From: Candidatus Omnitrophota bacterium | Lineage (GTDB): Bacteria; Omnitrophota; Gorgyraeia; B26-G9 | DNA: 64,000 bases | Reading direction: 5' to 3' | Assembly: GCA_043826565.1 (NCBI GenBank) | Contig: JBDRPX010000021.1 | Coordinates: 18,022-82,021, forward strand | The notes under the pieces: model-generated | The model's input: only the letters and a program-made list of their open reading frames with translations | What the model was told of the DNA's origin: nothing | Databases searched by the model: none | Translations under genes and position numbers: made by a program | Shown: positions 13,781 through 50,990 of the stretch, in pieces | Layout of the letters: each line of letters starts with the position of its first letter | Numbering within the stretch: the stretch's first letter is position 1

Positions 13781-13810
13781 AATTTGCAATCTGGAATTTG
13801 CAATGTGCAA
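13781..13810 (+). promoter_or_regulatory. AATTTGCAAT-CTGG-AATTTGCAAT direct-repeat element, related to the TTTGTAATTTGG motif at 24024 and 45378
   Basis: The sequence aatttgcaatctggaatttgcaatgtgcaat lies in a divergent intergenic region. Confidence 0.3.
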
Positions 13811-13862
13811 TAATTAATTGTACAATCATAGTAACAAATCGGCAGGTCTATTGCAAATAAAA

Positions 13863-13946
13863 CCCGCCATAAAGATTGGCGAGGTTCAATTCACCCAAAT
13901 CACTTATGTTCATGTCATTCCATAAGTGATGGGCTCATTGAAGGAG
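13863..13946 (+). promoter_or_regulatory. conserved structured leader element, family 1, copy A
   Basis: Hairpin 1 (CCCGCCAuaaagauUGGCG) is followed by GAGGUUCAAUUCACCC and then hairpin 2 (aUCACUUAUG-UUCAugucaUUC-CAUAAGUGAu). GGCUCAUUGAAGGAG follows and ends 8 nt before ATG 13954. The architecture recurs at 22333, 36481 and 50906. Confidence 0.6.
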
Positions 13947-13953
13947 AAAGATC

Positions 13954-14274
13954 ATGGCAAATGCTTTAATGCGTATCTGGGCGGAACGGGATATTGATGA
14001 GGTAAAGAAACACCTTTTATTAGCCGGGGAACTGAGTGCTAATTGTGATAATTGTCAGGAATTGGGAATTAATTTTATGAAGGAAGCGGTGTGCCCGTCC
14101 TGCGGCACTGCTTTTAAATATATTGCTTTACGCAAGAAAGACAGCTTTCGGGAAACCCAGAATATGATCGCCCGCCTAAAAGAAAACCGGCCCGATTTAA
14201 CGATCCTTGATTATGAGGATATTAAACGAGCCTGCGCTAAATCAAAAGCGAATGATATTTTCAGGATGAAATAA
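13954..14274 (+). CDS. hypothetical Zn-ribbon protein (CxxC...CxxC)
   Basis: Length is 106 aa, with CDNC and CPSC pairs. There is no known family match from memory. Confidence 0.45.
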   Translation: MANALMRIWAERDIDEVKKHLLLAGELSANCDNCQELGINFMKEAVCPSCGTAFKYIALRKKDSFRETQNMIARLKENRPDLTILDYEDIKRACAKSKANDIFRMK

Positions 14275-21166: not shown

Positions 21167-21583
21167 ATGAAAAACAAAATTAATATATTAAAGGAACAGG
21201 GCATTAGAATTACTCCTCAGCGCGTGAGGATATTTGAGCTTTTAGCCGCGGAAAAAAGACATTTGTGTGTTGAGGAACTTTATGAGAAAATAAAAGAATC
21301 ATTTCCCGCGGTTTCTTTGGCAACAGTGTATTCTATTTTAGAGCTTTTAAAAAAAAAAGGAATAATTCGCGAGATCAGGATTAAGTTTGATAAATCTTGT
21401 TATGAAGCAAGAACTGATCTGCATCATCATTTTTCCTGCAGGAAATGCAAAAAGATTTTTGATATTGATCTAACCCCGTGTCCGGCATTACAGAGCAAAG
21501 AAATTAACGGGCATATAATCGAGGAATTACAGGGATATTTTTACGGAATCTGCCGGGATTGCAAGGAGATAAACAGTGAATGA
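21167..21583 (+). CDS. Fur-family transcriptional regulator (PerR-like by context)
   Basis: ITPQRVRIFELLAAEKRHLCVEELYEKIK is the DNA-binding helix, and HHHF...CRKC...CRDC are the metal sites. It heads the peroxide-stress gene cluster. Confidence 0.8.
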   Translation: MKNKINILKEQGIRITPQRVRIFELLAAEKRHLCVEELYEKIKESFPAVSLATVYSILELLKKKGIIREIRIKFDKSCYEARTDLHHHFSCRKCKKIFDIDLTPCPALQSKEINGHIIEELQGYFYGICRDCKEINSE

Positions 21584-22283
21584 GTTTCGCGGCCGCTTAA
21601 TCCAACGGATCAAGAGAACGCCGGAGGTGGAAAGCTTTCGGTTTAAAACCAAAGAGCCGGTGGTTTTTTTAGCCGGGCAGTTCTTACGCGTAATTTTTGA
21701 TGCGAATAATAAACAAAACCAGGAATTGAATAAGTATTTGTCTTTTTCCTGTGCTCCGGGGAAAGAATATATAGAGGTAACTAAAAAATTAAGCGCGAGT
21801 GAATTCTCTCAGAGGCTTAAATCGCTTAAGACTGATGATGAAGTGCTCTTTGAAGGGCCGATGGGCAAATGTGTATTAAAAGACGGAGAGGGAAAAGCCG
21901 GATTCTTAGCCGGCGGGATCGGGATTACTCCGGTTATCTCCATGATCGAAGATATAAAGAACCGGGAGCTGGATATAAATGTTATCCTGTTTTATTCTAA
22001 TCGCAATCCCCAAGAGATCGCGTTTAAAAAGGAACTGGATTTATGGGAGTCGGATAATACTGAAATTGTGCATACTCTGACTGATTGTGAATCTGCGGAT
22101 ATAAAATGTGTTTACGGATATATTGATAAAGAACTAATTCTACGGTATACGGCGGATATTAAAACCCGCCCATTTTTCATTTTCGGTCCGCCGAAAATGG
22201 TACAGTCCATGAAAAATGTGTGTTTAGAAGCCGGGTGTGATCAGAACATGATTAAAAGTGAAGGGTTTATGGGGTATGAGTGA
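21576..22283 (+). CDS. FAD/NAD(P)-binding oxidoreductase (ferredoxin-NADP reductase-like FR-type domain)
   Basis: An RxYS-like FAD motif (KYLSFS) and GGIGITP NAD-binding motif are present. It overlaps the Fur-family gene by 8 nt. Confidence 0.6.
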   Translation: MNEFRGRLIQRIKRTPEVESFRFKTKEPVVFLAGQFLRVIFDANNKQNQELNKYLSFSCAPGKEYIEVTKKLSASEFSQRLKSLKTDDEVLFEGPMGKCVLKDGEGKAGFLAGGIGITPVISMIEDIKNRELDINVILFYSNRNPQEIAFKKELDLWESDNTEIVHTLTDCESADIKCVYGYIDKELILRYTADIKTRPFFIFGPPKMVQSMKNVCLEAGCDQNMIKSEGFMGYE

Positions 22284-22332
22284 AGACATAAATTGCAGAG
22301 CAAAGTGAATGCAATTTATAAGTCTGAACTCA

Positions 22333-22448
22333 CCCCGCCTTTTCTGCTGTCAAGGGTAGTTATAGGGTAAGAAAGGGCGGGGTTAATTCGCGCAGATCAT
22401 TTATGTTGCTAAAGCTGCCATAAATGATGCGCTCATTAAAGAGAGGAG
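22333..22448 (+). promoter_or_regulatory. conserved structured leader element, family 1, copy B
   Basis: Hairpin 1 (CCCCGCCUUUUC...GAAAGGGCGGGG) is followed by UUAAUUCGCGCAG and then hairpin 2 (AUCAUUUAUG-UUGCuaaagCUGC-CAUAAAUGAU). GCGCUCAUUAAAGAGAGGAG follows and ends 7 nt before ATG 22455 (rubrerythrin). Confidence 0.55.
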
Positions 22449-27800: not shown

Positions 27801-28591
27801 TGAGGAAGTTTTTATTGGGGGCGGGATTATTGGTGAGCATACTTTTTTTTAGCGGAAGCTTGTATGCTCAGACGAGTGTTGATGAGATTATAACTAAGGC
27901 AAATAACACAGCCTATTATGCGGGGAATGACGGAAAAGCAAAAATTACCATGACCATAACCGACAACCAGGGCCGGGTACGCAAAAGAGTGTTTAAGATT
28001 TTACGCATGGATATTGCTGACGGCCAAGAACAAAAATATTATGTGTATTTCAGCCAGCCCGCGGATGTTCAGGATATGGTTTATATGGTTTGGAAATACC
28101 TGGATAAAGATGATGACCGCTGGATGTATCTGCCGGCGCTTGATCTGGTAAGAAGGATCGCGGCCAGTGATAAGCGTTCCAGTTTTGTTGGGTCTAATTT
28201 TGTTTATGAGGATATTTCCGGCCGCAGTCTGGCCTTGGATAATCATGAATTAGTTTCTGCCGAAGGAGATCGTTACAAGATAAAAAATACGCCTAAAGAT
28301 GCTTCGGAGGTTGAATTTTCTTACTATGATGTGTATATCCGCAAAGATAATTTTATGCCGGTCAAGGCAGAGTACTATGACAAGCAGGGGAAATTATCTC
28401 GCATTGTGGAAGCCTTGGAAGTGAAAGATATTAATGGACATCCTACGGTAACAAAATCAAAAACTACAGATCTGGTTACCAATGGTAATACGGTAATTGA
28501 ATTTGGAGAAGTGGCGTATGACCTGGGATTAGAGAATGATATTTTTACGGAAAGATATCTAAGGAAGCCGCCCCGAAAGTTGTTAGAATGA
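27800..28591 (+). CDS. LolA-like outer-membrane lipoprotein-sorting family protein (DUF1329-like partner of RND exporters)
   Basis: A signal peptide is present and the protein is 263 aa. It is typically co-encoded with MMPL-type RND genes. Its start overlaps the RND stop. Confidence 0.5.
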   Translation: MRKFLLGAGLLVSILFFSGSLYAQTSVDEIITKANNTAYYAGNDGKAKITMTITDNQGRVRKRVFKILRMDIADGQEQKYYVYFSQPADVQDMVYMVWKYLDKDDDRWMYLPALDLVRRIAASDKRSSFVGSNFVYEDISGRSLALDNHELVSAEGDRYKIKNTPKDASEVEFSYYDVYIRKDNFMPVKAEYYDKQGKLSRIVEALEVKDINGHPTVTKSKTTDLVTNGNTVIEFGEVAYDLGLENDIFTERYLRKPPRKLLE

Positions 28592-29895
28592 AGAAAAGTA
28601 GATTGTGTTTTATCTGTATTTTATTGATAACTGTTATCCTTATGTTTTCATGTGATGCTCATGCGGCTTTTCGTTTAGGAGAAAACGGCCCGAAGGTAAG
28701 CGCTTTTGTGGAAAACGATTTTGGTATTAAGCTGGGCAATGATACGACGAAGCGCGATGAATTCAATATGTTTGAGCAGAGACTGCAGTTAAAGACTTCG
28801 GTTTATCCGGAATATACAGAGTTGCTGGAAGACTGGATGGCTCAAGTGAATGTTAAAGCGGATTTTACCGTGGATGAGTACTTTAACGGCCGTACGGATG
28901 CGCAAATGAGAGAATTGAATTTGGCGATAGCTCCGCTAGATTGGATGGATACAAAAATCGGGAGGCAGGTATTTACCTGGGGAACCGGAGATTATTTGTT
29001 TGTCAATGACCTGTTTCCTAAAGATTATGTATCTTTTTATATCGGTAGAGATGACGAGTATCTTAAAAAACCGAGTGACGGAGCAAAAGTTTCTTTGTAT
29101 TCGGAAAAAGCAAACCTTGATCTGGTGGTTATTCCGTTTTTTGAACCGAATACGATTTTTAACGGACAGCGTTTGTCATTTTTTGATCCGTTCCAGGGAG
29201 GCATTGCCGGAGTTAATTCTAACCGTACCTTAACCGAGCCGGATCAAAACCCGGATAATATCGAGTATGCTGCCCGGGTGTATAAAAGTTTTGATAGTTA
29301 TGAAACAGCTTTTTATTTATTCCGCGGATATTATAAAATGCCGCGCGGCTACTTAAATGAATTTAACCGCGAACTTTTTTATCCCCGGCTGGATGCGTAC
29401 GGCGCGAGCATTAGAGGCCCGGTGTTTGGCGGTGTTGGGTATGCCGAAGGCGCATACTATAATTCTCCTCAGGATAATATGGGAGATAACCGCTTAATTG
29501 AAAATCCGATGTTTAAATATATGCTGGGCTTTGAAAAAGACCTGGGTAATGATTTGAAAGCCGGAATGCAATATTTATATGAGCAGATCTTAGAGTATAC
29601 AAATTACCGGAATACTTTACTTGGGCGGGATTATTATTGGGATGAATACCGGCATCTAACAACATTAAGAGTGACAAAGCTGTACAAAAATCAGACGGTT
29701 ATGGCCGGATTATTTGTGTTTTTCTCTCCGTCCGACCTTGACGGATATGTGCGGCCAAGTATAACTTATGATGTTTCGGATGTATTAAAAATTACTTTGG
29801 GAGCTAATCTTGTCTGGGGAGAAGATGTGCAGACAGAATTCGGCCAGATGGAGCATAATAAAAATATATACACGCGGGTGAAATATAGCTTCTAA
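28588..29895 (+). CDS. putative outer-membrane beta-barrel protein (DUF1302-like partner)
   Basis: A signal peptide is present and the composition is Tyr/Gly-rich with alternating pattern. The C-terminus ...VKYSF is an OMP signature. Its start overlaps the upstream gene by 4 nt. Confidence 0.45.
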   Translation: MKKSRLCFICILLITVILMFSCDAHAAFRLGENGPKVSAFVENDFGIKLGNDTTKRDEFNMFEQRLQLKTSVYPEYTELLEDWMAQVNVKADFTVDEYFNGRTDAQMRELNLAIAPLDWMDTKIGRQVFTWGTGDYLFVNDLFPKDYVSFYIGRDDEYLKKPSDGAKVSLYSEKANLDLVVIPFFEPNTIFNGQRLSFFDPFQGGIAGVNSNRTLTEPDQNPDNIEYAARVYKSFDSYETAFYLFRGYYKMPRGYLNEFNRELFYPRLDAYGASIRGPVFGGVGYAEGAYYNSPQDNMGDNRLIENPMFKYMLGFEKDLGNDLKAGMQYLYEQILEYTNYRNTLLGRDYYWDEYRHLTTLRVTKLYKNQTVMAGLFVFFSPSDLDGYVRPSITYDVSDVLKITLGANLVWGEDVQTEFGQMEHNKNIYTRVKYSF

Positions 29896-29941
29896 ATGAC
29901 GACATTAGTTATGGAACATAACTGATGAAAAGGAGGGAATT

Positions 29942-30104
29942 CAAAAGTCAAAGGTCAAAACTCAAAACTGCAAGTTAAAAGTCAAAAATAATCAAGAAAG
30001 ATTTTAATTGTTAGTATTTTTAATAATATAACTTTATGATAATAAATAAGTTTTAAATTTTGAATTGAATTTTTGAATTTTGCCTTTTGATTTTTGACAT
30101 ATAA
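29942..30104. repeat. imperfect inverted repeats built from TCAAAA(C)/GTTTTGA heptamer-like units flanking an AT-rich core
   Basis: The left arm aaaagtcaaaggtcaaaactcaaaactgcaagttaaaagtcaaaaat faces the right arm aaattttgaattgaatttttgaattttgccttttgatttttgacat. Related units are at 30414-30450 and 30733-30757. Confidence 0.4.
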
Positions 30105-30188
30105 AGCAGGTTAGTTAGAAAAACTTACTGATAAATATTGAATTAACTTAGAATTTTGACAATACGGGTAAGGAATAGGGAGGTTGTT

Positions 30189-36480: not shown

Positions 36481-36574
36481 GTCCGGGCACCAAAAAGATG
36501 TGCCACGGACATAAATTCGCCCAGATAACTTATGTTCACTTAGGTCCATAAGTTAGGGGCTCATTTAGGAGGGG
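36481..36574 (+). promoter_or_regulatory. conserved structured leader element, family 1, copy C
   Basis: Hairpin 1 (GUCCGGGCACC...GUGCCACGGAC) is followed by AUAAAUUCGCCCAG and then hairpin 2 (AUAACUUAUG-UUCAcuuagGUC-CAUAAGUUAg). GGGCUCAUUUAGGAGGGG follows and ends 7 nt before ATG 36582 (hcp). Confidence 0.55.
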
Positions 36575-48438: not shown

Positions 48439-48499
48439 ATAATCCAAAGGATTATAAACCCGCCAAGTTTTGTGGCGGGTCAATGTGTAGGAGCAGAAA

Positions 48500-49027
48500 G
48501 TGGAATTTAAAAAAATAGTTAAAAAATTAGATCCCAGGCTAAAAGCAATTGTTCGCAGGCTTGACGGCAAATATACAGCTTTTAATGATGATGATCTATA
48601 TCAGGAAGCGATGTTATATTTATGGGAAAAACATAAGGCCAGAGAGCTTGAGGATAAAACAGATAGTTTTATCCTGCAGGGATGTTTTTTTAATATGAAA
48701 AACTATATTCGTACGGTGAATAAGACTATAGATAAAAACTCGATGAGTTTAAATATCCCGTTAAATGAAGGGGGAGATACTTTGGAAAGTCTGCTTACGG
48801 ATAGTGAGGCAGTCAACACCTTTGACGCGGTAGAGGGAAAAATTCTTTCGGAAAAGATTAAGGGGATGCTTGATGTGCGGGAGATGAAAGTGTTTTCCAT
48901 GAATTGTGCCGGGTTGACAACGCGTGAAATCGGAAAAAGAATCGGTATTTCTCATGTTATGGTGGGGAAAATAAATAAAAAGATCCGCTATAAATGTAAA
49001 GAATTAAAGAAAGAAAATATTTTTTAG
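48500..49027 (+). CDS. sigma-70 family (ECF-like) RNA polymerase sigma factor
   Basis: Region 2 (DDLYQEAMLYLWEK) and the region-4 HTH (LTTREIGKRIGISHVMVGKI) are present. The start is a GTG with AGGAG upstream. Confidence 0.6.
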   Translation: MEFKKIVKKLDPRLKAIVRRLDGKYTAFNDDDLYQEAMLYLWEKHKARELEDKTDSFILQGCFFNMKNYIRTVNKTIDKNSMSLNIPLNEGGDTLESLLTDSEAVNTFDAVEGKILSEKIKGMLDVREMKVFSMNCAGLTTREIGKRIGISHVMVGKINKKIRYKCKELKKENIF

Positions 49028-50814: not shown

Positions 50815-50905
50815 TGACAGAGATGTCTTTTGATCCCTCGAAGGAGGGAAAAAGGCATCTCTTTTGTATTTAGGTCTTTGACATAAAAATATAAATATCG
50901 GAAAA

Positions 50906-50990
50906 CCCGCCAAAAAAATGGCGAGGTTAAATTCGCCTGCGCACTTATGTTCACGATGTTCCATAAGTGCTGGCTCATTGAAGAAAGGGG
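50906..50990 (+). promoter_or_regulatory. conserved structured leader element, family 1, copy D
   Basis: Hairpin 1 (CCCGCCAaaaaaaUGGCG) is followed by AGGUUAAAUUCGCCUGCG and then hairpin 2 (CACUUAUG-UUCAcgaugUUC-CAUAAGUG). CUGGCUCAUUGAAGAAAGGGG follows and ends 4 nt before ATG 50995. Confidence 0.6.

Follow-up and report, generated by a model that had tools for sequence, protein, structure and literature searches.

The four structured leaders found in the present stretch of Candidatus Omnitrophota DNA are probably MITE-like derivatives, without an open reading frame (ORF), of a palindromic element that is associated with a GIY-YIG nuclease gene and occurs mainly in this phylum. In the present study, we observed the architecture of this element, its phylum-wide multiplicity, a covariation limited to Watson-Crick pairs, its presence or absence at orthologous sites and its physical link with GIY-YIG ORFs. 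The MITE-like reading is favoured because the copies are short, non-coding and multi-copy, carry terminal inverted repeats and are polymorphic at orthologous sites. In addition, longer ORF-bearing elements with the same ends exist, in which the GIY-YIG protein is the candidate mobiliser. We found no description of the element in the literature on GIY-YIG proteins, Omnitrophota, MITEs, Patescibacteria or UPF0213.

Within the 64,000 nucleotides that were analysed (the window), the four plus-strand copies (A to D) reported by the first-pass annotation were all found in place by sequence, folds and covariance models (58-80 bits, E 1e-15 to 1e-21). Each is composed of a GC-rich 5' hairpin abutting a second hairpin of 55-58 nt, the core, after which the Shine-Dalgarno (SD) sequence follows 0-5 nt on and the ATG 11-14 nt on. 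A covariance model was built from these four copies, as that annotation had suggested, and scored them at 73-80 bits. Covariance models also found two further cores in the window, together with many Omnitrophota loci, and it was an improved model that detected the degenerate sixth copy. The features of the window, in which IR stands for inverted repeat, are the following.

13798-13826, plus strand: promoter-like TTGCAA-17-TACAAT, 5' of copy A; the box is kept in orthologous loci without the element
13862-13885, plus strand: IR hairpin of copy A ('hairpin 1'), class CCCGCCA/UGGCG(A)GG, from the fold
13886-13942, plus strand: type-1 core of copy A (71-80 bits), with SD directly after it and ATG at 13954
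22276-22332, minus strand: type-3 core, inverted partner of copy B (48-64 bits)
22332-22382, unstranded: IR hairpin of copy B, common to the divergent pair, class CCCCGCC(U/C)UUU/GAA(A)GGGCGGGG
22383-22440, plus strand: type-1 core of copy B, 5' of rubrerythrin (ATG 22455), from covariance model and Pfam
29892-29943, minus strand: degenerate core with shortened apical loop (29.6 bits, E 3e-6)
36481-36510, plus strand: IR hairpin of copy C, class ...GUGCCACGGACA, from the fold
36512-36568, plus strand: type-1 core of copy C, 5' of hcp (ATG 36582), from covariance model and Pfam
48458-48480, plus strand: lone IR hairpin CCCGCCA-N7-UGGCGGG, then UCAAU and SD, without core, from sequence
50904-50927, plus strand: IR hairpin of copy D, same class as copy A, from the fold
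50928-50982, plus strand: type-1 core of copy D, 5' of the ORF-amt-glnK operon (probable ATG 50995), from covariance model and Pfam

The density of the element in the window is about 1 per 11 kb. Composite B (22276-22440) folds as three abutting hairpins, and the reverse complement of its minus-strand core holds the TGA stop (22281-22283) of ORF 21576-22283; likewise, the degenerate core directly follows the stop codon of ORF 28588-29895. The hairpin-only copy at 48458-48480, which had also been noticed in the first pass, was confirmed and belongs to the copy A/D class. The UCAAU that follows it equals the first 5 nt of the core, and the site may be core-less or core-deleted. The ORF downstream of it (48500-49027) gave no Pfam match, and neither the 'sigma-factor' nor the 'porin' label of the earlier gene descriptions was confirmed by Pfam. 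The mechanical call of the first ORF of the amt operon begins at ATG 50947, inside the core hairpin; the true start is likely the in-frame ATG 50995, after the SD. Copy A is probably transcribed, since it is located between a conserved promoter-like box and the SD. No plus-strand terminator was called at any of the four copies, copy A alone scoring on the minus strand only, and an intrinsic terminator for 'hairpin 1' was rejected because a GC-rich stem with a U-tract is not found on the transcribed strand. An antisense sRNA ending at hairpin 1 was also discarded: the minus-strand terminator-like site exists at copy A only, no conserved promoter was found within the downstream coding sequences, and antisense covariance-model scores are 17-24 bits.

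The 57-nt core has an outer part made of P1, (U)xAAU/AUUx(A), a 2x2 UC/UC internal loop and a P2 of 4 bp, and an inner part made of a 3-nt bulge, a P3 of 9 bp, a UUC/UC internal loop, a 2-bp P4 and an apical loop of 3-5 nt; the core of copy A shows the tiers P1, UC/UC loop, P2, P3, UUC/UC loop and P4. The UU(C/A)AAUUCGCC and GGCUCAUU stretches had been described as single-stranded, but by fold and alignment they pair together, forming P1 and P2 around the UC/UC internal loop. The compensatory changes that had been pointed out in the arms of hairpin 2 proved correct on alignment of the copies. In the core at 22276-22332 all three helices differ in sequence with every pair compensated, and the unpaired UC/UC and UUCAC..UC nucleotides are kept. 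P4, within the apical loop, covaries as well (A-U 72 vs G-C 28). Single-sequence fold z-scores of the window copies are -2.9 to -4.1; the short motifs alone occur in the window at chance frequency, the combined element does not. At permissive as well as gathering thresholds, Rfam gave no credible match to the element, which agrees with the first pass, where it could not be matched to a riboswitch or leader family. The covariation holds in homologous copies elsewhere: among the collected cores, pairing holds in 97% of cells and double changes are seen at 16 of 18 pairs (14-16 over the covariance-model and MAFFT analyses), the observed pairing was reached by 0 of 500 shuffles, and slid controls gave 31-45%. 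MAFFT with RNAalifold on 32 diverse copies that were not fitted to the model recovered the same fold, with 149 double-sided changes vs 4 one-sided.

The substitution pattern is not RNA-like, as the covariation is of the Watson-Crick kind only. The cores contain G·U in 30 cells and A·C in 32, vs 2579 Watson-Crick cells, and the IR hairpins 17 G·U and 19 A·C. The compensatory changes had been taken as a signature of RNA structure; since G·U is as rare as A·C, the complementarity is instead strand-symmetric. The small number of one-sided changes (4, vs 149 double-sided) likewise departs from an RNA-type pattern. The interrupting TC/TC dinucleotides and the loop motifs are strand-specific. Counting G·U against A·C, together with looking for inverted partner copies, is a simple test to separate hairpins selected as RNA from those selected as DNA.

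One pattern scan of species-representative genomes gave at least 119 loci, and among the 80 matches listed nearly all are from Omnitrophota, including the complete genome of Ca. Velamenicoccus archaeovorus. The covariance model made 127 matches in the first 80 loci and 150 matches at E<1e-6 across 100 sources, and the core is present at more than 100 Omnitrophota MAG loci. Six non-Omnitrophota pattern matches (L016, L024, L034, L047, L062 and L063) had no covariance-model match, and their number is that expected by chance for the pattern. A viral origin was dismissed because the single IMG/VR pattern match had no covariance-model match and is a chance match. High-scoring cores were also seen on contigs labelled as other phyla, namely Candidatus Scalindua rubra (L065, which carries six cores), Ratteibacteria (L006 and L074) and a Neomarinimicrobiota bin (L020); mis-binning, coarse taxonomy labels or horizontal transfer could account for them.

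The link with the nuclease is found in the arrangement of neighbouring copies. Divergent orientation was seen in 34 of 53 neighbouring match pairs less than 1.5 kb apart, with gaps of either 30-107 nt or 264-291 nt. In the short-gap pairs the 5' hairpin is common to two outward-facing cores, as in the window at 22276-22440; in the long-gap pairs an ORF separates the two arms of that hairpin, its ATG directly after the left arm and its stop before or overlapping the right arm. The 'variable 5' hairpin' of the first pass is therefore present as a pairing, and is reinterpreted as an inverted-repeat pair that in other copies flanks an ORF. The long-gap ORFs match Pfam PF01541 GIY-YIG (E 3e-9 to 4e-12) and encode 78-97 aa, the full range of these nuclease ORFs being 72-97 aa, with the catalytic domain only and no separate DNA-binding domain; the closest solved structures are the UPF0213 entries 1ZG2 and 1YWL, and SLX1 is a weak match. 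By tblastn over the collected loci we found nine such ORFs, all adjoining a core, and none in the window. A protein-homologue search retrieved two new loci, L128 (ftsA-ORF-cupin) and L132 (cdhD-ORF-cdhD-like), in both of which the core to the left of the ORF is of type 2 and the one to its right of type 1 (62-72 bits). There are at least four IR classes, each with its own ORF-bearing version; the class of copy B brackets a GIY-YIG ORF in L053 and L004, and that of copy C recurs in L121, L018 and L080. Overall, the unit is a GC-rich IR hairpin ending GGGN that abuts the 57-nt three-tier core, and the complete element runs from a reverse-complement type-2/3 core through the left IR arm, the GIY-YIG ORF and the right IR arm to a type-1 core. 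In this order the cores and IR arms act as terminal inverted repeats of about 75 bp, and loss of the ORF would leave 'hairpin 1'. In L053 (215-250), a perfect TTGACA-17-TATAAT directly adjoins a full-length element, on the outer side of its left core; judged by its sequence, this promoter would drive the nuclease ORF, the right core and the host gene.

Homologous IR-ORF-IR units are present in Patescibacteria (CPR) without the cores, which indicates that the IR cassette and the cores are separable layers. The cores may thus have an identity of their own, perhaps with a host function, and be no more than a target of the nuclease cassette. In a Parcubacteria MAG (L127:1940-2300), a 72-aa GIY-YIG ORF with CCCCGCCCCC/GGGGGCGGGG flanks is located between nusG and rplK, with unrelated hairpins on either side and no Omnitrophota-type core. 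In a Patescibacteria MAG (L124:1475-2310), a class A RNase P RNA gene is split by a GIY-YIG ORF with CCCCCCCACCACTTTTG/CAAAAGTGGTGGGGGG on its two sides; the match of the RNA gene to Rfam ends at model position 324/367, and past the right repeat the conserved ACAGAAUUCGGCUUA resumes. About 100 nt upstream, still within that RNA gene, there is another hairpin of this repeat class but without an ORF, and a Y1_Tnp gene is nearby.

The elements fill short spacers between genes. Type-2/3 cores end at, or supply, the upstream stop codon, and the inverted partner copies point back towards the gene upstream, into its 3' end. Read in reverse complement, type-3 cores begin with RTAAGTGA, and they often provide the stop of the upstream gene, as in composite B and at sites in L044, L112 and L003. 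To the left of type-2 ends there is usually an AAGG- or GGAGG-like sequence, and then UCAAAUG. A leader peptide in the reverse complement of type-2 cores was considered and rejected, the AUG being conserved and the frames ending after 3-20 codons at variable positions. Type-1 cores end 0-3 nt from the downstream SD, start codon or tRNA 5' end. An ORF start lies within -2 to +19 nt of 89 of the 131 cores with a CTCATT 3' end, and the core-to-start distance is bimodal: 23 starts at -2 to +1 nt are without SD, and 57 at 7-14 nt have the SD directly after P1. In 42 of the 131 no ORF start was called within -2 to +45 nt; among these, several are followed by ORFs that are short or truncated, and two stand before tRNA genes. 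For two cores, the distance to the mature 5' end of the tRNA (tRNA-Met and tRNA-Ser) is 0-1 nt. The downstream genes are about 90 and unrelated, among them those for ribosomal proteins, EF-Tu, aminoacyl-tRNA synthetases, accA, prfA and pyrD, and the 80 downstream proteins gave 618 NCBIfam families, none with more than 3 members.

Furthermore, accA, prfA, pyrD, S11 and S9 carry type-1 cores in distant genomes, and orthologous genes of distant genomes show the same core-to-start distance class. This tight position and orientation at the same genes suggests selection beyond neutrality. The SD-less starts at the hairpin foot include those of the essential genes S19, L29, L11, prfA and accA, which, at the level of sequence, implies that translation can at least start in the presence of the core and may even require it. 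Such starts are not explained by an SD left behind at the other end ('split RBS'), since an SD at the left boundary is not enriched (5 of 22 SD-less copies vs 11 of 53). They pose a concrete question on translation initiation or mRNA processing in an uncultured phylum, and they allow for a co-opted function at the RNA level, be it in processing, in stabilisation of 5' ends or in initiation.

Comparison of orthologous loci revealed filled and empty sites. The 5' UTR of the Zn-ribbon gene is filled in the window only. In a 78%-identical relative it reads TACAAT...ATTGCAAT joined directly to GAGGAGG...ATG with the element absent, and in the window the same promoter-like box and a ATTGCAAAT motif are followed by the 80-nt element and then GAAGGAG...ATG; three further Zn-ribbon orthologues are also empty. 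The orthologous hcp loci L138 (2088-5622) and L139 (2084-5471) have no core. There hcp stands in a cluster of Rrf2, a 4Fe-4S protein, a small gene and hcp, and for that reason hcp is more likely to be regulated by a repressor of the Rrf2 family. The spacer between TrkA and the next gene holds a 221-nt composite in L003 and is empty, at 10-28 nt, in the window, L001 and L002. Recent copying is visible in L032, with two near-identical copies 2.4 kb apart, and in L075 (4510-4729), where three cores, each with a short hairpin, form a tandem array with an 81-nt period. The first two cores of that array have a diverged 3' end, with CCTCTTTCTTAAT in place of CTCATTAAA. Direct repeats at the flanks of pairs were clear in L079 (11 bp), and L052 showed a 5-bp GGAGG; most pairs had none.

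On the MITE-like reading, we infer that the hairpins are selected at the DNA level, their hairpin or cruciform ends being recognised or cut by a structure-specific nuclease, and that this cleavage would mediate copying into new sites beside a purine-rich SD-like sequence. Insertion would take place directly 5' of an SD or start codon, in the window at four unrelated genes, where the copies would be co-transcribed as part of the 5' UTR, forming stable hairpins that do not occlude the SD and sense no signal. Against this reading, a clear target-site duplication was seen only once (L079), and CPR units without cores, tightly positioned type-1 cores and SD-less starts also exist. UPF0213-type GIY-YIG proteins are not known to transpose or home, and their lack of a DNA-binding domain also speaks against this reading. 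If the nuclease link is causal, the widespread UPF0213/COG2827 GIY-YIG proteins of ultra-small bacteria (Omnitrophota, CPR) would be placed in a biological context for the first time, and the junction of stop, SD and start in compact genomes would emerge as the target of a mobile-element strategy. Tentatively, and with more doubt than belief, nuclease cassette, spacer-invading hairpin ends and host dependence might be taken jointly as one undescribed kind of prokaryotic mobile element. Such an element would consist of a minimal Slx1/UPF0213-type GIY-YIG gene, GC-rich inverted repeats and two outward-facing hairpin ends, and its target would be the few nucleotides between the stop of one gene and the SD or start of the next. 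One end would have evolved to give stop codons and the other a translation- or tRNA-compatible 5' hairpin, and Omnitrophota would have come to need the type-1 hairpin for many SD-less essential genes.

Other explanations have to be weighed against the MITE-like reading. It is unlikely, although part of the evidence speaks for it, that the transcribed type-1 core is a host-co-opted RNA module, a generic 5' end element of highly expressed genes. In that case an RNase would cleave the IR stem or the hairpin foot, for example RNase III, which acts in this way on rRNA intervening sequences. Operon transcripts would thereby be punctuated, and cleavage would leave behind a 5' hairpin that protects the transcript, an AUG without leader or the mature 5' end of a tRNA. 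Alternatively, initiation without an SD could be assisted by the hairpin. The bimodal, tight core-start distance shared with distant orthologues, the essential genes starting at the hairpin foot, the cores ending at mature tRNA 5' ends and the strand-specific conservation of the unpaired UC/UC and UUC/UC nucleotides all fit this idea. So do the three abutting hairpins of composite B, the promoter of L053 just outside the element, by which the whole element would be transcribed, and the interruption of RNase P RNA in L124, which can be tolerated only if it is closed off by the IR stem or processed. However, G·U is not in excess over A·C, the inverted type-2/3 cores keep the strand-specific motifs yet point antisense into upstream genes, and 42 of the 131 CTCATT-type cores have no called start; moreover, close relatives manage without the element at the same genes, and the left-boundary SD count gives the 'split RBS' no support.

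A regulatory leader sensing a ligand or protein and coordinating the Zn-ribbon, rubrerythrin, hcp and amt genes is extremely unlikely. The position of all four window copies, in the 5' UTR in sense orientation and with the SD directly after them, the conserved internal loops that could form a binding pocket, the strong covariation and the lack of an Rfam family made such a riboswitch-like element attractive, but more than 80 downstream genes show no functional coherence and include tRNAs, the element recurs about once per 11 kb in the window, and MFE folds gave no conserved alternative pairing that sequesters the SD. This reading, together with that of a regulon, fails on gene coherence, on the orientation of the inverted partners, on the G·U test and on the absence of the element from the orthologous hcp and Zn-ribbon loci; nuclease-ORF-bearing copies also speak against it. 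It is thus largely refuted by the gene-association and orientation data, and a tempting false riboswitch candidate is removed. What stands of the 'structured leader' of the first pass is the conserved paired structure and the probable transcription of copy A; its role as a dedicated regulator linking stress and nitrogen genes does not. It is also very unlikely that the element is a hairpin- or cruciform-forming promoter element, or the site of a global DNA-binding protein, at highly expressed genes, the loop of the IR hairpin giving -10 boxes for divergent transcription. Watson-Crick-only complementarity and a position before mRNA and tRNA genes alike speak for such a DNA element, many IR loops are A/T-rich with TAAAAT-like boxes, the L056 junction reads by eye as TTGACT-16-TAAAAT, and CATAAGT resembles a -10 box. 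Nevertheless, the cores have no consistently placed sigma-70-like hexamer pair, none was predicted at copies B, C and D, and a sigma-70 promoter in the core or IR loop, fitting L056 and L015 by eye, is not general. Copy A has its own upstream promoter, conserved in loci without the element, many IR loops (L008, L048) lack a -10-like sequence, cores occur inside ribosomal-protein operons (L038), and arm-to-arm covariation within a genome is atypical of a protein-bound palindrome.

Among known bacterial MITEs, the Correia/NEMIS elements of Neisseria and the Rickettsia palindromic elements are co-transcribed with neighbouring genes. The present element resembles them in being short (80-220 bp), non-coding, multi-copy, IR-bounded and intergenic, with transcript hairpins and orthologous presence or absence. 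It differs from them in that it is conserved phylum-wide rather than in a genus, each terminal repeat is a covarying three-tier hairpin, the ORF-bearing form encodes a GIY-YIG nuclease of about 80 aa instead of a DDE transposase, the ends lie 0-3 nt from stop and SD/start codons, and target-site duplications are seen only irregularly. Free-standing GIY-YIG homing endonuclease genes, such as phage T4 seg/mob and those of I-TevI type, share with it the catalytic domain, ORFs placed between genes and even in conserved operons (nusG and rplK in L127), and nuclease variants that go with different flanking repeat classes. This identity was rejected since the catalytic domain stands alone in 72-97 aa, without a separate DNA-binding domain, within perfect inverted-repeat brackets, and there are many sites per genome, in place of a single long asymmetric target, and many ORF-less derivatives. 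The UPF0213/COG2827 (YhbQ-like) and Slx1 nucleases are similarly single-domain and of similar size, and in the literature we found no description of mobile-element association or flanking repeats for the UPF0213 family. REP/REPIN-RAYT systems are marked by a Y1 (HUH) transposase and a GTAG/CGTC-tagged palindrome of 20-40 nt. Like REP, BIME and REPIN sequences with their RAYT (Y1 HUH) genes, the element forms extragenic palindromes, often as inverted doublets, shows compensatory evolution preserving a DNA or RNA hairpin, and has a single small nuclease-type gene flanked by repeats (PMC3733652). It cannot be assigned to them because the associated ORF is GIY-YIG (PF01541), not Y1_Tnp (PF01797), and the core is a 57-nt hairpin that starts U(N)AAUUC, lacks the GTAG/CGTC tag and has two conserved pyrimidine internal loops; unlike them, it is also strongly biased to the 5' side of genes. 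Integron attC sites were rejected in the absence of the associated integrase and the defining sequence boxes, and IS200/IS605 ends in that of the Y1 gene and the defining boxes. The GCUCAUUAAA stretch presumably resembles boxA; antitermination of the boxA/NusB type was discarded, as the stretch is base-paired here and adjoins start codons.

In Omnitrophota MAGs these elements probably lead to broken contigs and wrongly called start codons, as with the ORF called from 50947. An extra GC-rich palindrome was seen inside the apical loop at L040:7288-7395, L043:6050-6126, L065:6878-6962 and L014:1369-1445, one example being CCCCGCCGCATTC...GGCGGGG; hence IR hairpins also nest inside cores. After the degenerate core, in the intergenic region at 29940-30115 of the window, A-rich short repeats (AAAGTCAAA, AAACTCAAAA) are followed by the T-rich counterparts TTTTGAATT and TTTGATTTTTGACA, so that this tract is a long imperfect palindrome-like sequence.
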